Shown here piece by piece: positions 12,247 to 49,165 of a stretch of 64,000 bases of DNA. Numbering within the stretch: position 1 is the stretch's first letter; each line of letters starts with the position of its first letter. The DNA is from an uncultured virus (IMG/VR IMGVR_UViG_3300027732_000002) (taxonomy: Duplodnaviria > Heunggongvirae > Uroviricota > Caudoviricetes). The notes under the pieces were generated by a model that had not been told where the DNA came from, made no database searches, and saw nothing but the letters and a program-made list of their open reading frames with translations. The position numbers and the translations under genes are program-made. The DNA lies in IMG/VR virus record IMGVR_UViG_3300027732_000002; one strand, written 5' to 3'.

Positions 12247-12681
12247 ATGTCAACTGACAAAATTTCTACTCTTTCACTAAAGTCACTACTAGTCCCAAGT
12301 AAGTCTATTGAAATGGACTTCCCAGGATTTAATGGTTTTAAGGTAAATCTTAGTTTCCTAAGTCGTGAGACTCTAGTAGCTATTCGCAAGAAAGCAACAA
12401 AGATCACCTTTAAAAATCGACAGCCAACAGAAGAACTAAATGATGATCTTTTCCTAGAACTTTATGTTCAAGCATCTGTAAAAGGATGGTCTGGTTTCAA
12501 ACTTACCTATCTAGAACAACTAGCCCCAGTAGATCTAAGTAAGCAGGATCTAGAATCTGAGTTAGAATTTAGTGATGAAAATGCTCTATTCCTAATGAAG
12601 TCTAGTTCAAACTTTGACTCATGGGTAAGTGAACAGGTCACAGACTTGGGAAACTTTCAGAAGAACAGCGCGAACAAATAA
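12247..12681 (+). CDS. Tail assembly chaperone (gpG-like)
   Basis: Between tail tube and tape measure; VKGWSG and FDSWVSE motifs; ends just past a slippery GGGAAAC. Confidence 0.8.
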   Translation: MSTDKISTLSLKSLLVPSKSIEMDFPGFNGFKVNLSFLSRETLVAIRKKATKITFKNRQPTEELNDDLFLELYVQASVKGWSGFKLTYLEQLAPVDLSKQDLESELEFSDENALFLMKSSSNFDSWVSEQVTDLGNFQKNSANK

Positions 12682-13028
12682 GTAATCAGCTGCAGTCTTA
12701 CTACCAAAATGCTGCGGTAGGGATGACAAAAGATAGTTACTTTGAAATGTGTGAGGCGTTAGGATCGGAACCTATAGAGACCGAAATACCCGTAGAGTAC
12801 GATGACTTTCCTGTAGAAGTACAGGAAGCCATTAGAATTTACAATAATCTTCAGGACAACTGGGATTACATGGGTGGCAACTATATAGGTAAAAATCTTA
12901 ATGGCTTTAAAGATATTCTAAGTATTTTTGAAGTAGACCCTCAAGATTATCGTGCTGTTTATGAACTGATTATGCGAATTGATCGGATCCGAGCAAAAAG
13001 CATACAAGATAGTAAACCAAAAACCTAA
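12648..13028 (+). CDS. Tail assembly chaperone -1 frameshift extension (gpGT-like)
   Basis: The -1 frame is open from G GGA AAC (12648-12654) through ATG 12723 to 13028. Confidence 0.8.
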   Translation, partial: GKLSEEQREQISNQLQSYYQNAAVGMTKDSYFEMCEALGSEPIETEIPVEYDDFPVEVQEAIRIYNNLQDNWDYMGGNYIGKNLNGFKDILSIFEVDPQDYRAVYELIMRIDRIRAKSIQDSKPKT

Positions 13029-17997: not shown

Positions 17998-18575
17998 GTA
18001 GATTAGCGAGTCTATCACCAGCAGCAATAAAGGCAATGTTTTCAACTGAAAGCGATGCCACACTAATGACACTAATCACAATCTACGACCCAACAAGTAC
18101 TAATGTTAATACTGTAGCAGCACGACTTTGTGATAACTACTTACAACGGCTAGATACTAACAGTATTATTGGATTAGTAGGCTATCCTGCTAGTGATCAA
18201 ACCGTAGTAACTGATGGTAATGACCTAGTATACGGAGTTGTAAGTCGTAGCAATAACTATATATTTTTACCTGTTGAGATCAGTCTGCCCACTGAGGAGG
18301 ACAACTCAGCACCAAAATGTAGCCTAGTAATTCGCGATGTTACTCGCTACTTAACACCTCTTATTCGAAACATTCAATCACCTCCTAGAGTGTTAATCGA
18401 ACTAGTACTTACATCTACTCCTGATGTAGTAGAAGCTAGTTTTTCTAGTTTTTATATTACAAATATTACTTATAATGCTGATACCGTAACCTGCGAGTTG
18501 GCAATGACAGATTTTGCGGTAGAGCCTTTTCCCTGCTTTACTTTTACTCCTCAATTCTTTCCAGGAATATTCTAA
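17994..18575 (+). CDS. DUF1833-like tail tip protein (gpL-like position)
   Basis: FLPVEISLP..APKCSLVI, IELVL.STPDVVE, EPFP..FTPQFFPGIF. Confidence 0.7.
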   Translation: MSRLASLSPAAIKAMFSTESDATLMTLITIYDPTSTNVNTVAARLCDNYLQRLDTNSIIGLVGYPASDQTVVTDGNDLVYGVVSRSNNYIFLPVEISLPTEEDNSAPKCSLVIRDVTRYLTPLIRNIQSPPRVLIELVLTSTPDVVEASFSSFYITNITYNADTVTCELAMTDFAVEPFPCFTFTPQFFPGIF

Positions 18576-21500
18576 TGTGGTATAATGATTACGTGGGTAT
18601 ACCCTTTCTACAAAAAGGGCGCGAAAAGACTGGAGTAGACTGCTGGGGACTAGTACGCCTAGTGTACAAAGAAGAATTTGACATAGATCTACCAAGTTTT
18701 GCTGATGATTATGAATATGAAGATACGGAACGTATTGAACAGCTAACTGCGCAATATAAAGAAGGCTGGGAAGAAACAACCACCCCAAAACCTGGTAGTG
18801 TTATACTATTTAAGGTACTAGGTCACCTAAGTCACATAGGTATCTACATTGGTGGCAACAAGTTTTTACACTGCCTTGAGAATCACAGCAGTGTAATTGA
18901 AAACCTAGAGAGCATCAACTGGAACAAACGTTTTGCTGGATTTTTTAACTATGTTGAAAAGTCTTCGGCAGTTTTAAATGCTGTACCACACCCACTGCGC
19001 ACTGAGCGTTGGACAGTGCCTGTAAGGCCCGGTACAACAATAGAACAGTTATCACACTGGGTGTTAGAAAAGTTTGAAATATCTGGCGAAATATCTTCAC
19101 AAGTAACTATTATTAGAAATGGTGTAGTAGTATCAAAAGATGCGTATAGCACTACTATTATTCTAGATAAGGATACTATTGAGTACAGAGCAGTACCCGG
19201 AAAAAGCCTTATTAGAATAGCACTAATAATTGCTGTTGCTTACATTGCATATGCATCTGGTCAGTATTACCTAGCAGGTGCTGTTGCTCCAGGTGCTGCA
19301 GCTACCGCAGGTCAATTAGGAACCGCAGCTCTTATTTCAGCATCTGTTTCAACTATAGGCAATCTACTAATTGGTTACCTAATGCCAATCAGGCCACCAT
19401 CTCAGCCAAAAGATCCAGGCTCATCCGAGTCACAACTGCTATTAAGTGGTGGAAGCAACCAAGTAAGTAAATATGCAGCTATACCAGTTGTACTAGGTAA
19501 AGTACGTATGACACCACTATTAGGTGGTGAAAACTACGTTGATTCCAATACGGACAACAGTTACTTAAATATGTTGTTAGTATGGGGTTTTGGCCCCCTA
19601 AAACTTGACAAATCAACACTAAGGATTGGTTTAAATCCCTTTAGTCAGTATCAAAATGGTGCGGGTATTCCGATTGAACACTATCACCTAAACGACACTC
19701 AAACAGCAGACGATGCAAACGACATAATTAATTTTAATGCTATTTACGGATCAGATCGACAACAAGTTTATGTTGGTACTACTCTAGTAATGCAGACCAC
19801 TCCTACTAATGTAAATGTAGATGAAGGTGATGGACAAGGTGCTGTAGGTCCTTTTATTGGAGCTTCTTTAGGCCAGTCTAACACAGTACGTATTGACGTT
19901 AACCTACACTTTCCACAAGGCCTACGTCAACTGCGCGTTAAGGGCAAGCATTCCGGCGATATTTATGAACTAGGAGCAAAATTTCAGGTTCAAGTTGCGG
20001 CATTTACTGTAGGCGGAGTAGCTATTGGTGGCTGGGGAAGTGGCACTAACGCAACTATTCCTGCTACAACAGTAATTGCTGATGCTACTTACAATACTGC
20101 AGGTACCGCAAAGTATCGCTGGACTAGAATTGGTATTGGTTCTACAGGTATTCAAGTAAAAGTTGGTCCGCGTTGTGATGCTATTAATTCCGCCTATGGT
20201 ATTGGTGGAAGTTTTGACCTTTCACAGATTTCGATTTACTTAGCTGCTATGAGTGGTAATACTACTACTAATACTAGTGCTGGTGATGCCGGGGTAAGAC
20301 TGCCTGCATGGCCTGCAGACGTTACACCTCTGTACGATATATGTATGTACGGTCCCAACATAGCAGGAAGCACAGACTATGGCACAAGCCTAAGAGATAG
20401 ACGAACAATTACTGGAATGACCGTAACTACCGGGGAAATTGCCTCAGTCAATTATAGTACTGCAAGCTGGGCCAATCCAACTGCCGGAGCAAACACAGGC
20501 GATAAGCTAGTTAATATTGCACAAGGAACTATCTACCGAGCCACAAATGCTATTATTACTTTAGGTACTTCCGCCTCCGGTAAGTTCGTAAAAAGAAAAG
20601 ACGCATTTTCTTATACAGTGTCTATGCCTGTAGCAAAATTGCCTGATGATGGGTTTTACAGAGTAAGAGTTCGTCGTTTAACGGACGATAACGAAGACGA
20701 CAAACCAGATCCAGATAACAAGCTAATGCATGTAATAGTTTTTCAAAGTGCAACCGCAACCGCAACTAATAAACCTATAGTAGAAGGTACTAATTGGAGA
20801 CTTACTAAGTCCGCGATTAGAATTAAAGCAAACGACCAACTCAATAGTCGTATTGAGGGGGTAAATGGTATTGTAACAACTATTTGTAAAGATTGGAATA
20901 GTACTACTAGCAAGTGGGCCATTAATGATCAGGGTAGTAATAACCCTGCTAGTTTATTCTTATATATCCTAGAACACCCTGCAAATGCTTATCGTGTAGA
21001 ACCAGCAGATCTTAATGCAAAGATCAATATGGACGCGCTGGGTGCTTGGTGGACATTTTGTAACTCTAGGGGTTTCACCTTTAATTCTGTAGTAAGTTCA
21101 CAAGTTAGCGTATTAGATATTCTAAAAGATATTGCTGCTGCAGGCCGCGCAAGTCCAGCAATGGTAGACGGTAGATGGACTGTGGTTATTGACACAGACA
21201 AACCAGATATTATTCAGCACTTTACACCACACAATAGTTGGGGATTTGAATCTAGTAAGAGGCTCCCTAGGCAGCCACATGCTCTGCGTGTTTCATACTT
21301 AAATGAACAAGCAGACTACCAAGAAGAAGAGTCAATTATCTACAATCAGGGATACGCTGCTACAGCCTCTGGAACGGACAAAGCAGCAGAAATTTTTGAG
21401 CAGATCAATCTGCCCGGAATAACCAGTGAAAAAAATATCAAAGCACACGCTCGTTGGCACTTGGCTCAAGCTGCCCTACGTCCAGAAATTTACACAATCA

Positions 21501-24500
21501 ACACAGACCTAGAGTACCTAGTATGTAATCGCGGTGACCGAGTAAAAGTAGTACACGACGTACCCCTGTGGGGTATTGGTAGTGGTAGAATTGGTGATAG
21601 AATTGTTACTAGTACTCCTACCAGTATTTCATCTACTCTTATTTCTGGAAGTAGTTATGATGTTACTGCTCAGGTTGTAAATCAAATCTACCCAATCTAT
21701 AATGTAGGCGACACAATAACAGTATCCGGTTCACCAATTGTTGGGTACAACGGTACAAAAACAGTTACTGGCTGTACCGCTACAACTGTTAGGTGGACAG
21801 ATACTTCTGTAACTGGTACGGCTACTATTAGTAACACTGCTACACTGAACACAACTGGTATCACAGTAAATACTGGCACAGATATAGCAACAGCAACTTT
21901 TGTAAACCAAGGGTACATTCCGTTTGCAGTTGGTTCTAGAATTTATATTGCAGGGGCTATTCCCGCTACCTATAATGGTACAAGACTAGTTACTGCTTGC
22001 ACTGCTAGTGAAGTACAGTGGGCAGATGATGTAACAACAATTACTGCTACTACACAAGGAACAGTAAAAGGAACTATTGTTCCTAGTATTGTTGGAACTG
22101 AGTGCAGCGTATTTAAACTAGACGAAGACGTTCCATTAGAGGCTACTAAAGTTTATACTGTTCGTGTAAGGTCCAAAACTGGGGGCAGCTACTTGTGGAA
22201 TGTAGCCGCAGTATCAGTAGACGGATACTACAATACTATTAAAATATCTAGATTGGCTACAGACGGCGTTAGCACCCCTATTGCTGATAAAATTGATGTT
22301 AATGATTTATTCTTATTTGCACTACAAACTTACGAAGCACAAGACTTACTAGTATTAGCTATTGAACCTTTTGGCAATCAAAATGCTAAAATCACACTAG
22401 TAGACTATGCAGAAAAGCTATTTTTAGGCGTTGCTGGTGGTGGTGTTGACTTTACTAATGCATTTAAAACTCCTGCCTATACAAGTAAAATAACTCTACC
22501 GCCCAAGAACCTAGTACAAACCATTATCTATAAACCTATAGTTACTAGTATTATTAGTGACGAAACGGTAATGGAACAGATTTCAGCCGGTAACTTTAAG
22601 ATCAACATAAAGATTGGATTTACTAATCCTCCGCAACTACCAACAGACATTGAGTATGTACAAGCAGAAATTGACGATCTTGGTGATAGCTTAGATAACT
22701 GGCATACTTCAGTTGCGGTACTGGCCAACAAACAAACAATTACTATTACGGGAGTTGATGAGTTAAATACTTACAGAATCCGTTTGCGCTATCAAAGCAA
22801 GGACGGTAGAAACGGTCCTTGGACTACTGCAGCACTATCACCAGTTAGTAGTACTGCTTGGAGTTCTGGCACTTTAACAATCAACACAGTAAGTCGCCAC
22901 AGCTTTAGCGTTGGTGCACAAGTATACTTATACAATGCTCAGGGTACTAGCTTAAATAACATTTATACTGTGGATGCAATACCCAGTAAAACAAGTTTAA
23001 GTTGCGCTATTACTAAACCTACTATCTCAATTACTACTGCTGCAACAACCGCTAGAGCTGGTTACGCTACAGCGGCTTATACAGATAGAAATTATACACC
23101 TTACATAGTTGGTTCACAAATTATAGTAGCCGGAGCAGTTCCTGCTACTTATAATGGTGTGTCTAATGTTACAGCTTGTGATTCCGCCGGAGTAAGCTGG
23201 TCTACTGGTAATCTGCTAACTTATACTGAGAACATGACAACATGGTCTCAGGCTGTTGATGCGGATACTACTGTAACATACGAAACAGCCGTAGCAAACT
23301 CACAGGGCGTTAATGGTGTTTCAAAGATACAACTAGCTACTACCGCCAGCGCTCAAAGACAAATCTCTCAAGCATCTACTTTACTAGCAGCTAATACTGT
23401 AATTACTATAAGCGTAGACGCCAAAGCAGCAGAACTCTCTACACTAAGATTATACCTAGGTACAAAAATACCAGACTACCCCTCTGTTACTTTTGATTTA
23501 GCTACAGGTACAATAAGTACTGTTACTAACGCAGCAGGTACTTCTGTGCTAAATTATGGCATGATAAATCTTAGCACCGGATGGTATCGTTGCTGGCTAT
23601 CTGCTAGTGTTGGCTCAGGAGCAGGTACACCTGCTATAATTATTCAAATACCTAATACTGCAGGAACTGTTGGTCAAGGTTTTTATGTGTCTAGAGCACA
23701 AATGAATCTTGGTGAGTACCCAGGCCAGTACATTCCAGTTTTAGCTGCTACAGCTAACGTACTACCTATCACAGCAACAACTCAGGGTACCATAACACCT
23801 TGTGTTATTACAACCTCAATTACACAAACTGGCGGCGTAGCAACTGCTACATTTGACGCCCAAAAGCACTTATCACTCGCACCCGGAAGCAGTATTACTA
23901 TTTCTGGAGCTACACCTGCTGGATTTAATGGTACTTTTGTTATTACTAGTTCTACAGCAACTACTATAACTTGGGCGTCTGCAATAACAGGACCCGCAAC
24001 TAGACAAGGTACAATAGTTCGTACAACTGGAGTAGGTAGTTGGGTTACCTCCACAGCCAACCAAGCCAATCAAGATCTAGTAACAGGTCAGGGACTGGTT
24101 TCTGCCTATAATAATCTTGAAAATGCGTTTATACCAGACAAATTAATACACCAAGTAATAGGTAAAACATCTCCGCCAAGCACAGTAACAAATTTTACAG
24201 CAGTGCCCCTGTACGGCCAAGGCATATTAAGCCTTAACTGGACAGCCAACTCAGAAATTGACGTACAGTACTACGAAGTACGTACTGATACACTCTGGGG
24301 CTCAGAAACAAATCGTGTGTTTTATGGTGCTGGTGTTTCCTGTACTGCGGTACCTGCAGCACTTGGTGTAGCAAAAACATACTACATAAAAGCAATTGAT
24401 TACTCACTTAACTACGGCTTAACTTCCGCTACTTTTACATATACAGTAGTAGTTCCACCTACTATTACTGCTAGTCCTATAGCCACTTTCTTATATAACA

Positions 24501-27500
24501 CCACATCCTTATCAGATACTAATGTTATATTTAATTGGGCAATGCCTGCTAGCAGTAATTTCTTAATTGACCGTTATGAACTAACACTAGTCAAACCCGG
24601 TGTTGATACTTTAGTACAAGAAGTTACGGGTACAACTTGGACTACACCAGCTAACTGGGTAGGTGTTGCAACTCTAACTATTAAAACTATTGACATTCTT
24701 GGTAATAAGTCTGTTGCTTCCGCAAGCTTAGCAGTTACTAAAAATTTACCAGCATCTGTTTCAGGAGCTAGTATTACTACAACTCCTGTAGGTACTGGTC
24801 TAGCAATATACTGGGCAGAAGTAGCTCCACTATCAACTGGTATGGCTGTTGCGGGATACGAAATTCGTACGACCGACAGCAACTGGGGCACTGCTCTAGG
24901 AACCATGCTTTACTCCGGGTCTGCAAATAGTACTACTGTTGATATTAAGGGCACTACATCAGGAACCACACTAACTTACTACATTAAAGCATACGATGCT
25001 GATAACAGATACAGCAGTGCGGCTACTAGTTTTACTTACCTAGTGGCAGCACCTGTAGATACAAGCTGGAGTAACGTTCCTTTCGTTTTTGGTGAAAACA
25101 GCCTAACCGCTGCTACTATCACACTAACATGGAATCCTGCTAGTCCTGTGTTTGGACTGTACGGTTATGAACTTTCTTATACTACTACTGGTGGGGTATT
25201 AACAACCAGAATCTTAAATACTACAAGTATTGTTCTAAATGCTAGTACTGTTTGGAATGTTGTTGGAACTGGAACTGTTACATTTACTGTTAAAGTAATT
25301 GATAACCTAAACGTTAACAACAAATCTGTTGGTGCTACTATAGCACAAACAACAGTAACAAAATCTGCTCCAAGTCCAGTTAGTAACTATACCTCAAAAG
25401 TAATTGATAATAACGTGTTGTTATCCTGGACTCCTCCAGCAAAAACATCACTACCTATTGATCACATTACTGTATATAAGGGTGACACCTACGCAACGGC
25501 TGCAAATATCGGCGACAAAACTGGTACTTTCACTACTGTGTTTGAACAAACTGGTGGTACTTTTACTTACTGGGTAGTTGTCGTAGATACTGATAATCAG
25601 GTAAGCACACCTGTTAGCTTAACAGCCTTAGTAGCTTCTCCGCCAGACTATGTCTTCAATGCCGCATACAGTTCAATATTTGCTAATGTAAGTACTACAG
25701 TAACTAACACTACAAACCTTTCTGCGAATGTAACAGTTGGTTCTACGGAAGGCATGTACGCAGGCATGCAAATAATCTTAAGTGGAACCGCTTTTGGTGG
25801 ACTTACTGCTGGTTATTGGTATGTTGTTTCTATACTAGACAGCACAACAATTAATATTAGTAGCAGTTCGGCACTAACGCCTATATTTACAGGTACTAGT
25901 ACTGCTTCTGGTACTATGACCCTAACAGATGCTACTGGTGCTGAAGGTATTAATAGTAATACACTATATGATAACCAGGGTATAGTAATGCCAGTAGATA
26001 CTACTGCAACATTTACTAAACACTTTGATAGTGGTACAGGTAGAACATGGACAGGACCAAGTGATCAGAACGTTTACTTTCCTATCTTTATTCAACCAGG
26101 TAAATCTTCAGGATACTATGAAGAAGTGTACAACTACACCAAGCCTCTAGCAAGTAGTCAAATTACTATGAGCTATACAGGTACTGCTTTTAATGCTCCT
26201 GCAATAACTCCTATGATTGGTACAGCTGCTTCAGTTGCAGGTACAACACTTGCAGGCGGAACAGGAAGTGCAGTAACAGTTACAAATGCAGCAAATAGTA
26301 CTACATTAACTAGTTCAGAAGCTAGTGTTGGTTTAGTAATAGGTAACTTTATTACTGTGCCTGCGGGTACAGGTCAAACGGTACGAGTTATTTCTGTGGT
26401 TGGTAATTTAGTAACTGTTACTCCAGCTATTGTTGCTGCTAACACTACTGCTTCTTGGAGTTATGCAGGAGCATTTACTAACTATACTGGTACAACCGCA
26501 CTAGGAACAGCGTTTCAATATGTAAAAGCTAAAATCCATGTGGCCCAGGCCACTAGAAGTGCCGGAGCTGGAACAGGTATTAGTGCTCCAGGCGCTGTAG
26601 GACCTTCACTAGATTTAAACTTTGTGTCCAGCGATACACTAGATCCTAGAATTACATTTACTCGTAATTCAATTGGTACACACTTTGATTCAACTGGTAT
26701 TATGAGGGCAGTTACTGCTAATGTACCACGTTTTGATTATGATCCTGTTACTTTAGCTCCCAAAGGCTTGTTGATTGAGGAAGCTAGAACAAATCTAGTA
26801 TTTCAATCAGCAGCTATCGGTGTTACAAGTTGGTCAGCTATAGGTATAACTGCGACTGCTAATAGTATAGTCGCTCCAGACGGCACTTTAAACGGTACAA
26901 AGTTAGTATCTATAGCTGCAGATAGTGTTGCTGGTGCTACAAATATGACAGCTACAGCTACAACAACATATACTGCCTCTGTATACCTTAAAGCCGATGT
27001 AGCAACAACCGTTAGTATATTTATAGTAGATGCTACTGGCGGATCGGGTAATACACAAACTGTATGTAATGTTACAACAAGCTGGCAACGATTTACAGTA
27101 ACTCGTACTACTAGTGCTCTAACTACTGCTATTAATATGCAAATAGGTGGAGCAAATACATTTAGTACTGGTGAAACTGTTTATGCTTGGGGTGCTCAGG
27201 TAGAATTAGGTGCCTTCGCAACAAGTTATATTCCTACTGTTGCGACAACAGTACTTCGTGCCGCTGAGCTTGCCGTAATGACAGGAACTAACTTTAGTAG
27301 TTGGTATAATGCAACAGAAGGTACTTTTGCAGTACAATCTGGATATACTTTAAATGCCGCTAATGGTCCTAGCGGAGATTACTACTTTTCAGCTTCTGAT
27401 AATACTACTGCTAATTTTATATTATTAGCAGATGTTACAGGTACTAAAGGTCAAGTAACAGCTACTAGTACAAATACCTATAATTCAACAGTAGGTACTA

Positions 27501-28453
27501 GAGCTACTAGCACAACAACTAAAGTACATACCTTAGCGTATAAATTAAATGACACAAATCAATCTTCAGGCGGTACAACTGGAACTACGGATATAACAGT
27601 AACTATTCCAACAGTAAGTAGATTAAATATTGGTATTAATTATACGGGCTCTACAGGATACTTAAATGCTTATATTCAAAGGCTTACTTATTTTCCACGT
27701 AGAGTTATAGATGCAGATTTAACGCTACTAAGCAACACAGGTCAAGTTACTGTAACCGGAGTTGGTAGTGCCTTTACTAAGACATTTAAGGCTGGTGATA
27801 CAATTACTATTCCTAATACTGCTGTAGGTGTAGACTATAACGTCACAAGCGTTACTAGTGATACCCTACTAGGTGTTATGGTTCCAGTTGGTTTAACAAT
27901 GCCAGTTCATAGCGCAGGAACTAGTTATGCTTTCAAAGGTACTGACCTTTATAAGCTACAATCTCTAGGGGTTAAGCTAGACGCTAAGCAAAAATCAGAA
28001 AGTGGTATGGTTGTAGTAACATCTACAGATAGTGGTGGATCTATAGTTAACTTTAGTAGTACATTTATTGATGTTGCTAGTATTAATTTAGCTTCACAAG
28101 GTACTACAGCAGTTACTTGTGTCTATAACTTTTTGGATACTAATCCTACTGGAACGTATACAGTAAGTGGTACAACCACTTGCACTGTTAATATTACAGC
28201 ACATGGTTTAGTAAGCAATACAATTAATCAGTTAGCGTACTTAACTTTCACTAGTGGTACAGCCCCTAGTGGCAGATACCCAGTAACATATGTAAATGCT
28301 AATCAGTTTACTATTACACTACCAGCAGCACTAACAACAAGTGGTTCAGTTAGTATGTACCCTAATAGCATGACAGTATACGCATTTAACGATGCTGGTA
28401 CAAGAATAAGTATCCCTAGCCCTGGCGTTAGTTGGACAGTTCGTGGATTTTAA
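18575..28453 (+). CDS. Giant tail tip/central fibre: NlpC/P60 + gpI-like + gpJ-like hub + FN3 and carbohydrate-binding-like modules
   Basis: GVDCWGLV..HIGIY (NlpC/P60), IPVVLGK, NNPASLF, FN3-like repeats and PRFDYDP..GLLIEEARTN; 3292 aa, very Thr-rich. Confidence 0.85.
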   Translation: MWYNDYVGIPFLQKGREKTGVDCWGLVRLVYKEEFDIDLPSFADDYEYEDTERIEQLTAQYKEGWEETTTPKPGSVILFKVLGHLSHIGIYIGGNKFLHCLENHSSVIENLESINWNKRFAGFFNYVEKSSAVLNAVPHPLRTERWTVPVRPGTTIEQLSHWVLEKFEISGEISSQVTIIRNGVVVSKDAYSTTIILDKDTIEYRAVPGKSLIRIALIIAVAYIAYASGQYYLAGAVAPGAAATAGQLGTAALISASVSTIGNLLIGYLMPIRPPSQPKDPGSSESQLLLSGGSNQVSKYAAIPVVLGKVRMTPLLGGENYVDSNTDNSYLNMLLVWGFGPLKLDKSTLRIGLNPFSQYQNGAGIPIEHYHLNDTQTADDANDIINFNAIYGSDRQQVYVGTTLVMQTTPTNVNVDEGDGQGAVGPFIGASLGQSNTVRIDVNLHFPQGLRQLRVKGKHSGDIYELGAKFQVQVAAFTVGGVAIGGWGSGTNATIPATTVIADATYNTAGTAKYRWTRIGIGSTGIQVKVGPRCDAINSAYGIGGSFDLSQISIYLAAMSGNTTTNTSAGDAGVRLPAWPADVTPLYDICMYGPNIAGSTDYGTSLRDRRTITGMTVTTGEIASVNYSTASWANPTAGANTGDKLVNIAQGTIYRATNAIITLGTSASGKFVKRKDAFSYTVSMPVAKLPDDGFYRVRVRRLTDDNEDDKPDPDNKLMHVIVFQSATATATNKPIVEGTNWRLTKSAIRIKANDQLNSRIEGVNGIVTTICKDWNSTTSKWAINDQGSNNPASLFLYILEHPANAYRVEPADLNAKINMDALGAWWTFCNSRGFTFNSVVSSQVSVLDILKDIAAAGRASPAMVDGRWTVVIDTDKPDIIQHFTPHNSWGFESSKRLPRQPHALRVSYLNEQADYQEEESIIYNQGYAATASGTDKAAEIFEQINLPGITSEKNIKAHARWHLAQAALRPEIYTINTDLEYLVCNRGDRVKVVHDVPLWGIGSGRIGDRIVTSTPTSISSTLISGSSYDVTAQVVNQIYPIYNVGDTITVSGSPIVGYNGTKTVTGCTATTVRWTDTSVTGTATISNTATLNTTGITVNTGTDIATATFVNQGYIPFAVGSRIYIAGAIPATYNGTRLVTACTASEVQWADDVTTITATTQGTVKGTIVPSIVGTECSVFKLDEDVPLEATKVYTVRVRSKTGGSYLWNVAAVSVDGYYNTIKISRLATDGVSTPIADKIDVNDLFLFALQTYEAQDLLVLAIEPFGNQNAKITLVDYAEKLFLGVAGGGVDFTNAFKTPAYTSKITLPPKNLVQTIIYKPIVTSIISDETVMEQISAGNFKINIKIGFTNPPQLPTDIEYVQAEIDDLGDSLDNWHTSVAVLANKQTITITGVDELNTYRIRLRYQSKDGRNGPWTTAALSPVSSTAWSSGTLTINTVSRHSFSVGAQVYLYNAQGTSLNNIYTVDAIPSKTSLSCAITKPTISITTAATTARAGYATAAYTDRNYTPYIVGSQIIVAGAVPATYNGVSNVTACDSAGVSWSTGNLLTYTENMTTWSQAVDADTTVTYETAVANSQGVNGVSKIQLATTASAQRQISQASTLLAANTVITISVDAKAAELSTLRLYLGTKIPDYPSVTFDLATGTISTVTNAAGTSVLNYGMINLSTGWYRCWLSASVGSGAGTPAIIIQIPNTAGTVGQGFYVSRAQMNLGEYPGQYIPVLAATANVLPITATTQGTITPCVITTSITQTGGVATATFDAQKHLSLAPGSSITISGATPAGFNGTFVITSSTATTITWASAITGPATRQGTIVRTTGVGSWVTSTANQANQDLVTGQGLVSAYNNLENAFIPDKLIHQVIGKTSPPSTVTNFTAVPLYGQGILSLNWTANSEIDVQYYEVRTDTLWGSETNRVFYGAGVSCTAVPAALGVAKTYYIKAIDYSLNYGLTSATFTYTVVVPPTITASPIATFLYNTTSLSDTNVIFNWAMPASSNFLIDRYELTLVKPGVDTLVQEVTGTTWTTPANWVGVATLTIKTIDILGNKSVASASLAVTKNLPASVSGASITTTPVGTGLAIYWAEVAPLSTGMAVAGYEIRTTDSNWGTALGTMLYSGSANSTTVDIKGTTSGTTLTYYIKAYDADNRYSSAATSFTYLVAAPVDTSWSNVPFVFGENSLTAATITLTWNPASPVFGLYGYELSYTTTGGVLTTRILNTTSIVLNASTVWNVVGTGTVTFTVKVIDNLNVNNKSVGATIAQTTVTKSAPSPVSNYTSKVIDNNVLLSWTPPAKTSLPIDHITVYKGDTYATAANIGDKTGTFTTVFEQTGGTFTYWVVVVDTDNQVSTPVSLTALVASPPDYVFNAAYSSIFANVSTTVTNTTNLSANVTVGSTEGMYAGMQIILSGTAFGGLTAGYWYVVSILDSTTINISSSSALTPIFTGTSTASGTMTLTDATGAEGINSNTLYDNQGIVMPVDTTATFTKHFDSGTGRTWTGPSDQNVYFPIFIQPGKSSGYYEEVYNYTKPLASSQITMSYTGTAFNAPAITPMIGTAASVAGTTLAGGTGSAVTVTNAANSTTLTSSEASVGLVIGNFITVPAGTGQTVRVISVVGNLVTVTPAIVAANTTASWSYAGAFTNYTGTTALGTAFQYVKAKIHVAQATRSAGAGTGISAPGAVGPSLDLNFVSSDTLDPRITFTRNSIGTHFDSTGIMRAVTANVPRFDYDPVTLAPKGLLIEEARTNLVFQSAAIGVTSWSAIGITATANSIVAPDGTLNGTKLVSIAADSVAGATNMTATATTTYTASVYLKADVATTVSIFIVDATGGSGNTQTVCNVTTSWQRFTVTRTTSALTTAINMQIGGANTFSTGETVYAWGAQVELGAFATSYIPTVATTVLRAAELAVMTGTNFSSWYNATEGTFAVQSGYTLNAANGPSGDYYFSASDNTTANFILLADVTGTKGQVTATSTNTYNSTVGTRATSTTTKVHTLAYKLNDTNQSSGGTTGTTDITVTIPTVSRLNIGINYTGSTGYLNAYIQRLTYFPRRVIDADLTLLSNTGQVTVTGVGSAFTKTFKAGDTITIPNTAVGVDYNVTSVTSDTLLGVMVPVGLTMPVHSAGTSYAFKGTDLYKLQSLGVKLDAKQKSESGMVVVTSTDSGGSIVNFSSTFIDVASINLASQGTTAVTCVYNFLDTNPTGTYTVSGTTTCTVNITAHGLVSNTINQLAYLTFTSGTAPSGRYPVTYVNANQFTITLPAALTTSGSVSMYPNSMTVYAFNDAGTRISIPSPGVSWTVRGF

Positions 28454-45057: not shown

Positions 45058-45377
45058 TGCCAACAGTTCAAATTAAACCTGCGGGGTCGGTACTACCACG
45101 TGTGGAAAAGTACGCAAAAGAAACCATTGTTTATCGCCTAGACTGTGCTGCACTACTAGAACCAATGGAGCTAGTAGGAAGCGCTGCACCAATTAATGTT
45201 CCTGAAGGCGTTGTGGTGGTCAAATGTCGTGCTAAGGACGGTAATGCCATTGAAGTTACTATTAGCAATACCGACCTTGAAGTACAGGTCTACCAAGACT
45301 TCATCATTAACATTGCCTACGAAACTACTGCAGGCAATACGCGTGTAGCTAGCTTTCAGCTACGAGTACACCGCTAA
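45057..45377 (+). CDS. Hypothetical protein, possible second adaptor paralog
   Basis: KYAKETIVYRLD..TTAGNTR resembles the preceding ORF. Confidence 0.5.
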   Translation: MPTVQIKPAGSVLPRVEKYAKETIVYRLDCAALLEPMELVGSAAPINVPEGVVVVKCRAKDGNAIEVTISNTDLEVQVYQDFIINIAYETTAGNTRVASFQLRVHR

Positions 45378-45733
45378 TGTTTAATAAGTACATTATTCAA
45401 CTAGTAATTGTTGGAGCAGTATTAGGGTTTCTAGGGTTGGCCTACAGCTGGGTCTATAACCGTGGATACGTAACCGCCAACCTAGAATGTGATCAAAAGT
45501 TTCAGGCTTATGAGTCCAAGCTAAACAATCAGCTTGATGTTTTAGAGGCTAACCTCCAGACCATTAACACGGACTTAGTACAAAAGCAGTCTGAGCTGGT
45601 TGTGGACGTACAGACCATCCTACAAAAAGTAAAGTCAAAGCCTACGATTATTGTAAAAGAAGGTCGTTGTACCCTACAGCCAGAATTTGTGGATAGCATC
45701 AACCAAGCAATTCAAAGAGTAAACCAAGAATGA
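45377..45733 (+). CDS. Putative inner-membrane spanin (Rz-like)
   Basis: Single N-terminal TM segment plus coiled coil with Cys; next to a lipoprotein and a lysin. Confidence 0.7.
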   Translation: MFNKYIIQLVIVGAVLGFLGLAYSWVYNRGYVTANLECDQKFQAYESKLNNQLDVLEANLQTINTDLVQKQSELVVDVQTILQKVKSKPTIIVKEGRCTLQPEFVDSINQAIQRVNQE

Positions 45734-46011
45734 AAAAACTACATTTATTCTGCATTTTGCTTGCTACAATGTTGATCGGCTGTAGTTCAGTTCCAGAAAA
45801 TCCAAAACAAGTAATCCAACAAAAACAGATTTACGTTGACAGTAACTTGTTAAGGCTGTGTGAACCACTACCGCTGTACGACGCTGCAAAGCCAATGGAA
45901 ACCTATCTACTGGAGCACTATATCACCACTATTCAAATGTACGGTGTTTGTGCTCAACAACAGCGTAAAAGTGTTTTAACAATAAAACACCTAACCAACG
46001 TGAAAGATTAA
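45730..46011 (+). CDS. Putative outer-membrane spanin lipoprotein (Rz1-like)
   Basis: Lipobox MLIG-C; LLRLCEPLP..YGVCA motif. Confidence 0.75.
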   Translation: MKKLHLFCILLATMLIGCSSVPENPKQVIQQKQIYVDSNLLRLCEPLPLYDAAKPMETYLLEHYITTIQMYGVCAQQQRKSVLTIKHLTNVKD

Positions 46012-46012
46012 C

Positions 46013-46414
46013 ATGAAAATTCCTCGTTTTAGAAACTTATTTTTAATTGGTGGTAGCCTTATTATTGTGTTATACTTGGTCCTAAGCGATCCAAATGGTG
46101 GCAATCTTACTCTACCATTTTTAGCTAAACTGGCTACTCCTGTTATTGCAGTGTGGTTTGCTCACCTAGCACGCAAAGCACTATTTGATTACATCGACAT
46201 GGCTAGGCTTTACCAGCTATCAAAAGAAACACCAGTAGGTGCTGGCCTATCTTTCTTAGGAATGTGCGTAGTTATTTTTGGGTTACTAGGGCTATTTGGC
46301 AGCCAGGTTTATGCTCAAGTGCCACAAAATGCTCAAAAGTATGTTCCAACCTTAGTACAAGAACAACAGGCTCACTGGTCCACACACCCAAAGCAGCAGC
46401 CCTTGGTAGTTTAA
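46013..46414 (+). CDS. Holin-like 3-TM protein; N-terminal part of a frameshifted lysin
   Basis: Three hydrophobic segments, then VYA-QVPQNAQKY; ends shortly after C CCA AAG (46387-46393). Confidence 0.65.
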   Translation: MKIPRFRNLFLIGGSLIIVLYLVLSDPNGGNLTLPFLAKLATPVIAVWFAHLARKALFDYIDMARLYQLSKETPVGAGLSFLGMCVVIFGLLGLFGSQVYAQVPQNAQKYVPTLVQEQQAHWSTHPKQQPLVV

Positions 46415-46950
46415 TAGAACACGAGTCTTGTATTTCCTTAACACACTCACGCTGTTGGAGTCCTACGTCTAGGCTTAAATCAGCTCGCGAGGAAGGAGCA
46501 GGGCTTGGTCAACTAACAAGGGCATGGCGTAGCGATGGAACCCTAAGATTTGATGCACTAAAAGAAATTAGGTTCCTACACAAAAAAGAACTAAGCGAAC
46601 TGAGCTGGGACAACATCTATACACGCCCAGATCTACAGATTAGAGCAGTGGTCTTAAAGTCTCGAGACAACTACAACTACTACAGGCCCTACAGCCACAG
46701 CGATCTAGAGGCTCTAGCATTTGCAGATGCTGCTTACAATGGCGGTGTGGGCGGGCTAGACTCAGAACGTAGAGCTTGTAAACTAGCACCTGGTTGTGAC
46801 CATACAAAATGGTTTAACAACGTAGAACTATATTGTTTGAAAAGTAAGGCAGCACTATATGGAAATCGTAGTGCTTGTGACATTAATAGACACCACGTAA
46901 AGGACGTTTTATTGACCAGAATAAGCAAGTACACACTATTTTTTGAATGA
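46387..46950 (+). CDS. Lytic transglycosylase (SLT-like) endolysin domain in the -1 frame
   Basis: IEHESC (catalytic Glu), GAGLGQLT and AAYNGG motifs; no convincing own start. Confidence 0.8.
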   Translation, partial: PKAAALGSLIEHESCISLTHSRCWSPTSRLKSAREEGAGLGQLTRAWRSDGTLRFDALKEIRFLHKKELSELSWDNIYTRPDLQIRAVVLKSRDNYNYYRPYSHSDLEALAFADAAYNGGVGGLDSERRACKLAPGCDHTKWFNNVELYCLKSKAALYGNRSACDINRHHVKDVLLTRISKYTLFFE

Positions 46951-46967
46951 CCTTAGGAGCCTACACT

Positions 46968-47675
46968 ATGGCCAGAAGTACCGGTAAAAGAGCTAGACGT
47001 GATCAACAGTTTGATAGTATTACTAAACCAACCAGCTCACACGGAGTAAAAACTTCGATACAATCAGTAAAACCACTCAACTTTATTCAGGGTGCATATT
47101 TAGATGCTATTAAATCAAATGATATTATCTTTGGCATTGGTTCAGCAGGTACAGGCAAAACCTTTATTGCTGCTACTTATGCAGCAGAGCAGCTGTTTTA
47201 TAAAAAGGTTGACAAAATCATCCTTACGCGCCCAAACATCGAAACGGGTCGTGGACTAGGCTTCCTACCAGGCACACTAGAGGAGAAGTACGCTCCCTAC
47301 TTGTTACCTTTTGACGCCATCTTCAGTCACGCACTAGGTCGTGGGTTTTATGAGTATGCCCTAAAGTCTAAAACAATTGAGCCTACTCCATTAGGATTCC
47401 TACGTGGTACTACCTTTGAAGACTGTATTGTGCTAGTAGACGAAGCACAAAACTGTACTCGTGAGGAAATGAAGATGTTACTTAGCCGCATCGGTCGCAA
47501 CTGCAAAATGATTTTTTCTGGAGATACTGAGCAGGCTGATATTCCTAACTCGGGCCTAGACGATGCCTGCGATAGGCTGGAAAACATCAAGGGCGTGGAA
47601 GTCATCGAGTTCTTAGACGAAGACATTGTACGTAGTGAGATGTGTAAACAAATCATTATGGCGTACAGAAAGTAA
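46968..47675 (+). CDS. phoH: PhoH-family ATPase
   Basis: GSAGTGKT, LGFLPG, FLRGTTF, VDEAQN, SGD and DIVRS motifs; AGGAG SD. Confidence 0.95.
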   Translation: MARSTGKRARRDQQFDSITKPTSSHGVKTSIQSVKPLNFIQGAYLDAIKSNDIIFGIGSAGTGKTFIAATYAAEQLFYKKVDKIILTRPNIETGRGLGFLPGTLEEKYAPYLLPFDAIFSHALGRGFYEYALKSKTIEPTPLGFLRGTTFEDCIVLVDEAQNCTREEMKMLLSRIGRNCKMIFSGDTEQADIPNSGLDDACDRLENIKGVEVIEFLDEDIVRSEMCKQIIMAYRK

Positions 47676-48536: not shown

Positions 48537-48568
48537 ACGTCCGGAAATTCAAGTATATAATTTTGGTA

Positions 48569-48597
48569 TTGACTTATATACCCATAAAGTATATAAT
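48569..48597 (+). promoter_or_regulatory. Sigma70-type promoter of the collagen cassette
   Basis: TTGACT-17 bp-TATAAT. Confidence 0.8.
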
Positions 48598-48640
48598 GGG
48601 TATATTGACTTTGGTACCAAAATTTTTAATAAGGACAACC

Positions 48641-49165
48641 ATGTTTTCACCCTTTAATCCGTTTATGCAAACTCAGTCCTTGTTTCCACTTAGCCAGTCT
48701 CAAGGATTTTTCCTATTTGAACCCAGCCCACTAGTAAGTATTGGTGGATGCGGAGACGATATTATTAACATTGGAGGTTCTGTAATACCGGGACCACCAG
48801 GACCACCAGGACCACCAGGACCACCAGGACCACCAGGACCACCAGGACCACCAGGACCACCGGGCCCTCCCGGCCCACCGGGTACTCCGGGCCTAGTTCC
48901 TGTTACTGATATTATTGACAACTATACCGCACTATCAACGGACTACTTTTTATGCGTTTTAACTATAGCACCTGTAACTATCACTCTGCCTGTAGGCATA
49001 CTAGGTACAGTTTATATAATAAAAGATTGTAGTGGAAATGCGGGTACTGAGAATATTACTATTCAAGGAACAGGGCAGACTGTGGACGCTGGTATTGCTA
49101 CTATTAATGTTCCCTATGGCAGTGTAACAGTAGTATTTAATGGTTATAGTTGGAGCATAGTATGA
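48641..49165 (+). CDS. Collagen-like protein, (GPP)10 plus C-terminal beta domain
   Basis: AAGGA SD at ATG 48641; ten GPP triplets followed by GTP. Confidence 0.8.
48791..48889 (+). repeat. (GGACCACCA)x7 plus degenerate copies encoding Gly-Pro-Pro
   Basis: Read directly. Confidence 0.9.

Follow-up and report, generated by a model that had tools for sequence, protein, structure and literature searches.

In tailed phages, programmed −1 ribosomal frameshifting is best known from tail assembly chaperone genes and from a few capsid and replication genes, and the lambda chaperone site works with an efficiency of a few per cent. Among bacterial genes, the heptamer of the copA frameshift is CCCAAAG. 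The lysis genes of lambda provide a different kind of translational control, since the S gene yields holin S105 and antiholin S107 from one message by means of dual starts. This study concerns a stretch of 64,000 nucleotides (nt), hereafter the window, from an uncultured virus of the class Caudoviricetes (IMG/VR record IMGVR_UViG_3300027732_000002), in which positions 46013 to 46950 carry a holin-like membrane open reading frame (ORF) and an endolysin-like enzyme that are divided between two reading frames at the heptamer C CCA AAG. Comparison with related loci makes it highly probable that the lysis cassette of this phage contains a conserved −1 programmed ribosomal frameshift. The shift itself would be of the standard −1 kind and new in its functional setting, inside a lysis enzyme and linked to a presumed holin.

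The membrane ORF (46013-46414, plus strand) yields under standard decoding a protein of 133 amino acids (aa), predicted to comprise three membrane helices with hydrophobic segments beginning at residues 6, 34 and 73, a signal-peptidase-like motif VYA/Q (residues 99-102), and the first helix of a transglycosylase domain. Its codons at 46385-46393 read CAC CCA AAG, so that CCCAAAG (46387-46393, plus strand), the proposed shift site, forms an X XXY YYZ slippery heptamer in phase with the ORF. Past the heptamer, six sense codons (QQPLVV) are followed by TAA. The −1 frame, read from CCC AAA, gives PKAAALGSLIEHESC...AYNGG... and remains free of stops up to 46950; this continuation (46387-46950, plus strand, 187 codons) encodes the remainder of a family-1 lytic-transglycosylase-like endolysin, including an IEHES motif. 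Before the heptamer, the −1 frame contains a single ATG, GTG or TTG codon, the GTG at 46264, located 41 codons upstream inside the membrane ORF, while the codon at position −4 relative to the heptamer is CTG. The predicted trans-frame product of about 312 aa would consist of ORF residues 1-127 and 185 further residues. Direct reading of 46013-46414 and of its codon phase thus agrees with the initial annotation, which had described a three-helix ORF that reads CAC CCA AAG and stops seven codons later, an in-phase heptamer at 46387-46393 and a −1 frame lacking a good start of its own.

Related loci were fetched from viral contigs (80) and metagenome contigs (80). After exclusion of 26 duplicates and of 7 loci with too little upstream sequence, 127 of these 160 loci could be analysed, and the position homologous to the heptamer was located in each of them. 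One of the fetched sequences, L083, is a 98.5-kb contig with a 100% match to the queried enzyme stretch. The split is exactly as in the window in 48 of the 127 loci, comprising L001, which matches the window at 100%, and 47 others. The enzyme lies in one frame in the other 79, of which 21 are fusions of the three-helix part and the enzyme in the viral set. An in-phase X XXY YYZ heptamer is present in 47 of the 48 split loci within the overlap, taken from the last −1-frame stop to the zero-frame stop. The heptamer is CCCAAAG in 28 split loci, CCCAAAA in 13, CCCTTTT in 4, and CCCTTTC and CCCAAAC in one each. Two of the CCCTTTT sites have moved: in L093 and L095 this heptamer is placed 6 nt downstream, and the former position reads T CCT CGC, which is non-slippery. 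All but one of the 47 heptamers belong to the classes V_VV.A_AA.R or H_HH.U_UU.Y, which one study gives as the most efficient in Escherichia coli (PMC4066793).

Two further arrangements at the junction were observed. Loci L105 and L107 carry an extended C CCA AAA AAA TTT G, equal to three overlapping in-phase slippery heptamers, at which shifting may be more efficient or more diffuse. In the in-frame fusion L122 the sequence CAT CCC AAA GCC (HPKA) is found in the enzyme's own frame, the same bases being out of slippery phase; judging from its codons, this arrangement possibly pictures the ancestral state.

The upstream ORF in the 25 viral split loci is 133-155 aa long, with two or three hydrophobic segments, and in the split loci generally it stops 4-17 codons past the heptamer, mostly at 8 or 5. 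The shortest overlap, of 16 nt, occurs in L018 and L019, where a −1-frame TGA stands one codon before CCC, and in many split loci −1-frame stops lie 1-5 codons 5′ of the heptamer. When 23 distinct split sequences are aligned, which requires no gaps, CACCCAAA shows no variation, whereas synonymous sites beside it do vary. Column entropy 5′ of the heptamer peaks at the third codon position of the zero frame (1.16 versus 0.92 and 0.40 bits), and 3′ of it at the third position of the −1 frame (1.07 versus 0.49 and 0.37 bits), the switch of the most variable codon phase falling in windows of the alignment that contain the heptamer. At the protein level, zero-frame residues up to ...W..HPK followed by −1-frame residues align gap-free with in-frame relatives, two of which read HWRDHPRPAVLAALVEHES (P0113) and THPKPQYLASLIEHES (P0025) through the junction; the joint that was initially called seamless is indeed so.

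Three architectures were recognised among the relatives. In the first (type A), a free-standing three-helix protein of about 100-110 aa is followed by a second gene for an enzyme of about 235-260 aa with a signal peptide; in the second (type B), the three-helix part and the enzyme form an in-frame fusion of about 310-355 aa; the third (type C) is the split form of the window. The membrane part is homologous across all three. With the N-terminal 100 aa of the membrane ORF, homologues upstream of the enzyme or fused to it were found in 77 of the 80 viral loci plus the window at E ≤ 10, and 68 of these 77 reach E < 0.01. In a tree of the enzyme part for the viral set, the 22 distinct split sequences form one clade with support of 100/99, adjoining eight type-A sequences (96/92). 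When metagenome loci were included in a quick tree, for which the shift region was omitted from the alignment, one change sufficed to account for all 47 split sequences, the branch itself being weak (Shimodaira-Hasegawa-like approximate likelihood ratio test value 59). In the viral split loci the spanins, the window's twin aside, are only 25-40% identical, and the split lineage must be old because these proteins have diverged so far. The recoding signal appears to have been retained and remodelled throughout this old lineage.

The enzyme itself is predicted to be an endolysin of the family-1 lytic transglycosylases (SLT/GH23-like). Homologues at less than 60% identity are carried by 76 phage isolates, and their listed annotations are mostly endolysin, lysin or transglycosylase, including gp62 of Pseudomonas phage YuA and a 'SAR endolysin transglycosylase' (SAR, signal-anchor-release) of Stenotrophomonas phage Sonora. 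PHROG 669, 'endolysin', matches the −1-frame enzyme with an E-value of 2.9e-8. Pfam searches with both ORFs returned no family at E ≤ 0.1, and no solved transglycosylase was found in the PDB by phmmer or by profile, the single sequence giving a chance match only. An AlphaFold2 model was built for the in-frame homologue L036 (317 aa, alignment of 17 sequences) and not for the window's own trans-frame protein. Its mean predicted local distance difference test score is 83.8, rising to 97 over residues 111-140, and it shows three long membrane helices with a short connecting helix, a low-confidence linker (residues 94-102) and a compact domain. Alignment of Foldseek candidates (probability 1.00, E only 2e-3) with VIA-align placed MltF first (Z 18.8, root-mean-square deviation 2.9, 173 aligned residues, model range 98-317), ahead of MltC (Z 17.3), Slt70 (Z 16.2) and MltE (Z 16.2), which indicates a goose-lysozyme/SLT fold in the L036 model. 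The SLT domain proposed for the window is not called by Pfam; the assignment stands on the fold of this relative, PHROG 669 and the annotated isolate homologues. The residues H-E-S are invariant in the 17 in-frame relatives (H140, E141 and S142 in L036), and most split loci have IEHES; the Glu of this motif is a candidate for the catalytic residue. The equivalent of the window's HPK is residues 128-130 of L036. The shift site is thus preceded by about 30 residues that belong to the fold, helix 114-124 among them, and a protein begun anywhere in the −1 frame would lack them.

A transglycosylase gene of this family seems to be interrupted in phage AgentSmith (MW749006.1, 1199-3280; locus L082). 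There, an N-terminal fragment of 111 aa ends past EEGAGLG and is followed by an 'endonuclease' gene and then by a complete copy of 308 aa, an arrangement that looks like a homing-endonuclease insertion or a duplication. Another gene combining three helices and a transglycosylase (H41) is present elsewhere in the same record.

The main rival to a programmed frameshift is independent initiation at an NTG codon: the two ORFs would be overlapping genes, the enzyme would start at the NTG at −4 or by termination-reinitiation, and the holin would release it from the cytoplasm. Two facts count against the frameshift here, namely that ATG, GTG or TTG does stand at −4 in 25 of the 47 other split loci, and that gene callers use this codon, giving proteins of about 191 aa; 81 of the 120 best protein clusters are such calls, starting about 4 residues before PK. 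The codon is, however, a by-product of a conserved zero-frame Trp codon, TGG; it is CTG in the window, and in the other 22 of the 47 loci the open −1 frame contains no ATG, GTG or TTG up to and including the heptamer. A protein started there would lack the first helix of the fold, going by the L036 model, and would have no export signal, unlike every one-frame relative, all of which possess a signal peptide or membrane helices. Independent initiation also leaves unexplained why the heptamer is either invariant or replaced by another slippery one. Taken together, these points make it an improbable explanation, although it may occur in the 25 loci that have such a codon. As a matter of database content, most entries among P0002-P0120 are truncated and begin at the Trp-derived NTG or at xIEHES. 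The truncated calls of about 191 aa, named 'hypothetical protein' and made from a spurious start, mean that public annotation systematically misses the frameshift.

The alternative raised by the initial annotation was a 1-bp sequencing deletion. More broadly, what is really a single fusion gene might appear broken through faulty sequencing or assembly, or might have become a pseudogene by losing 1 bp in recent times. In-frame fusions of the same two parts do exist (the 79 one-frame loci, with the 21 viral fusions among them), and read data at the break are sparse: a contig of only one run (X1) bridges the heptamer, at a depth of 61 and with no indel, and X1 is possibly the window's own source, while contigs of X5 break off at 46388 and restart at 46401. 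The break cannot be a sequencing error of the window since 47 other distinct loci, from many assemblies, share it. Purifying selection acts on both halves, each in its own frame, the heptamer is kept or swapped for another slippery one, and the age of the split lineage, given the 25-40% identity of its spanins, does not fit a recent deletion; error or pseudogene formation is accordingly very hard to credit. That all homologues would be in-frame fusions with no slippery site is not the case; the frame break and the heptamer, whose presence in related genomes had been put forward as a check, are both conserved, and the comparison strongly supports a programmed −1 frameshift over a 1-bp deletion.

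Slippage of RNA polymerase at the C3A3 run, restoring the frame in some of the mRNAs, would yield an identical protein, and contigs from the RNA libraries X4 and X6 cover the flanks only, leaving 46387-46393 unbridged. The runs are nevertheless just 3-4 identical bases long, and known transcriptional slippage sites need much longer homopolymers. The conserved feature, a phase-specific X XXY YYZ, matters for the re-pairing of tRNAs and not for the polymerase, and this explanation is most unlikely. The idea of a split enzyme, in which the tail of the membrane protein, ending with the conserved first helix, supplies this helix in trans to a separate −1-frame fragment, has next to no probability because that fragment has neither a conserved start nor an export signal and would thus be on the opposite side of the membrane from the periplasmic tail.

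With a programmed −1 frameshift, most ribosomes translating the membrane ORF would terminate at 46414 and produce the 133-aa membrane protein. A minority would slip back by one base at C CCA AAG, with tRNA-Pro moving from CCA to CCC and tRNA-Lys from AAG to AAA, and would go on to 46950 to give the fusion of about 312 aa, which has the same membrane part joined to the lytic-transglycosylase endolysin. As the enzyme domain spans the shift site, production of a functional enzyme would depend on the shift. Through the third helix, the C-terminal part would come to lie in the periplasm, where the conserved V/A-x-A motif may allow release of the enzyme by signal peptidase. The frameshift efficiency is probably low, and it would fix a high ratio of membrane protein to enzyme, the 133-aa protein being likely in large excess over the fusion; in-frame fusions (1:1) and two-gene relatives would set the ratio otherwise.

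Some published data bear on the strength of such a site. C_CC.A_AA.G, the type to which CCCAAAG belongs, is described as highly shift-prone in one paper (PMC5009743), and in another it ranks among the top three −1 motifs of E. coli, reaching 54% when combined with the IS3 pseudoknot (PMC4066793). In the latter paper, shifting directed by the heptamer only is about 0.3% in E. coli, a value that agrees with the abundant and the minor product proposed in the initial annotation.

Several points weigh against the proposed frameshift and its efficiency. A level of about 0.3%, as for the heptamer only in E. coli, would be low for an essential enzyme, and stimulators were not found. RNAalifold on 23 sequences gave −1.07 kcal/mol and no compensatory pairs; the minimum free energy of the 100 nt downstream in the window has a z-score of 0.09, and the mean z-score for 70 nt downstream in 47 loci is −0.43, compared with −0.34 for a control stretch. 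Upstream, a 4-mer resembling a Shine-Dalgarno (SD) sequence occurs in just 18 of the 47 loci, which is not above the control. L116, the exception among the 48 split loci, has just A CCT TTT, of the tetramer type, together with an altered IEKES in place of IEHES; this copy is in decay, or else it relies on a tetramer-type site. Finally, the case is built throughout on comparative data. A stimulatory element is not universal among bacterial or phage −1 sites.

The role of the membrane part is less certain than the shift itself. The ORF has three helices, lies between the spanins and the enzyme, corresponds to a free-standing gene in the two-gene relatives inspected, and is the only small multi-helix membrane ORF occupying a gene slot within the window; on these grounds it may be a holin. 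Against such a role, no Pfam or PHROG family was matched, and the Sonora holin showed no detectable similarity to it (E 0.32). The description 'holin-like' thus holds for topology, for the position after the spanins and for the free-standing homologue before the endolysin, but not for family membership. Other searches returned little: neighbours in the ESM Atlas are unnamed viral proteins with scores below 0.8, in the PDB profile search the membrane part matched diacylglycerol kinase and ATP synthase c weakly (E 0.11-0.48), which is taken as chance, and tblastn with the membrane part against phage isolates found AgentSmith alone (E 1e-10, annotated as transglycosylase), apart from a weak match in phiR1-37.

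The basic N-terminus and the charges of the loops suggest an N-in, C-out topology, and the enzyme would then lie in the periplasm. All 48 split loci have a [V/A]-x-[A/G] motif just past helix 3. It is similar to the sites at which the signal peptides of type-A relatives and of Sonora are cleaved, and signal peptidase may for this reason free the enzyme, in the window at VYA/Q. SAR endolysins are marked by a weakly hydrophobic helix at the N-terminus, rich in Gly and Ala, that escapes cleavage and leaves the membrane; the third helix here is Gly-rich but internal, following two other helices and preceding the conserved A-x-A-like motif.

These considerations allow the tentative picture of a frameshift-timed lysis device, which we regard as conceivable and no better than doubtful. 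The shared membrane part, with helix 3 acting as an internal signal sequence, would serve both products; the choice or relocation of the heptamer would tune the efficiency and hard-wire the holin:endolysin stoichiometry; and until the membrane is depolarised the rare long form would possibly stay tethered and inactive as an enzyme, or serve as a partner of the antiholin type. If true, such a device would parallel the dual-start holin/antiholin by way of recoding, and in evolution it would stand between the two-gene and the fused modules.

On the plus strand, 45377-47675 reads as a lysis cassette followed by phoH. The i-spanin-like gene (45377-45733) encodes an N-terminal membrane helix and a coiled periplasmic part, and it matches the Rz-like spanin PHROGs 8821, 1403 and 4297 with E-values of 1.5e-4 to 3.6e-4; its position is conserved in 24 of 25 split viral loci, with 25-38% identity in the 23 non-twin loci. 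The next gene (45730-46011) encodes an o-spanin-like lipoprotein matching PHROG 456, Rz-like spanin (E 1.6e-4), and phrog_2425; LIGC is, in our own reading, its putative lipobox, and the gene is present in 22 of the 25 split viral loci. The order i-spanin, o-spanin, split module is kept in 22 of the 25. The start of the PhoH-like gene (46947-47675; Pfam PF02562, E 2.6e-66) overlaps the stop of the endolysin frame. A PhoH homologue is found downstream in 23 of the 25 loci, at no more than about 630 nt from the junction in 21 of them and at more than 2 kb in L002 and L025. Further downstream of the cassette, the ORF at 48563-49165 encodes about 11 GPP triplets in a row, as in collagen, and after them a C-terminal part that is beta-rich.

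No nucleotide similarity of the window to phage isolates was found. PHROG matches in the window include a major tail protein, a tape measure and a J-like giant tail protein of 3292 aa, and indicate a long-tailed phage; affiliation with N4-like phages, guessed from the 3292-aa ORF, was rejected. This ORF (18575-28453) matches PHROGs of central tail fibre J and tail protein; among tail tip proteins of siphophages such a size is unusually large. Outside the lysis module, a tail assembly chaperone pair was recognised at 12247-13028 (plus strand), where an ORF of 144 aa is flanked by those of the major tail protein and of the tape measure. It contains an in-phase −1 heptamer, G GGA AAC (12648-12654), from which the −1 frame is open into the next ORF up to 13028, so the codons point to a likely second −1 frameshift, of the G/GT type, in the same phage.

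A full-text literature search combining frameshift or slippage with holin, endolysin and SAR endolysin, which did not extend to subscription-only papers, found no description of a frameshift that joins a holin-like gene to an endolysin. Shearman et al. 1994 reportedly dealt with overlapping holin and lysin genes and not with recoding. 'Lysins' are, in one article, listed among the genes 'known to contain a frameshift', with reference to that work (PMC10885494). The portion of the 2016 recoding review that was searched mentions neither holin nor endolysin (PMC5009743). If confirmed, the frameshift proposed here would be a new functional class of recoding and a third way to set the ratio of membrane protein to endolysin, in addition to the use of two separate genes or of a fusion in one frame. 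Since the heptamer functions in E. coli, the claim is directly testable although these freshwater phages are uncultured.

Among known systems, lysis cassettes whose transglycosylase endolysin has a signal peptide or is of the SAR type occur in Sonora, YuA (gp62) and Bordetella phages, and these endolysins are homologous to that of the window at 42-46% identity (E 1e-38 to 8e-44). Cassettes of the Sonora type share with the window the order i-spanin, o-spanin, three-helix 'holin', endolysin, and their mature enzyme has the same N-terminus, A-x-A / QDV.TY.P...W...P. In these phages, however, holin and endolysin are separate genes and the enzyme has its own signal, whereas in the window the frame is split. 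The lambda S105/S107 pair is likewise a case of ratio setting at translation, as proposed here, but uses two start codons and no recoding. Expression of the MS2 lysis gene depends on frameshifting in the coat gene, according to PMC10885494; unlike the present proposal, rare frameshifting there brings ribosomes to a separate start, and no trans-frame fusion is made.

With regard to the signal, E. coli dnaX, copA and the IS911/IS3 transposases use the same X XXA AAG class of heptamer. The copA frameshift, like the one proposed here, makes a membrane-protein gene yield two products of different length (PMC5009743). With dnaX and copA it is the shortened protein that arises from the shift, and stimulators are present (SD sequence, hairpin or pseudoknot), while in the lysis module the longer product would come from the shift. 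Another parallel is the lambda-type tail chaperone G/GT of long-tailed phages. As proposed here, a heptamer drives a −1 shift close to where a short ORF ends, an abundant short product is accompanied by a rare C-terminally extended one, and the arrangement is conserved across diverged phages despite turnover of the heptamer, with no need for a strong stimulator. In contrast to the tail chaperone, a complete enzyme domain would form the extension, the shift site is internal to that domain, and the module belongs to the lysis cassette.

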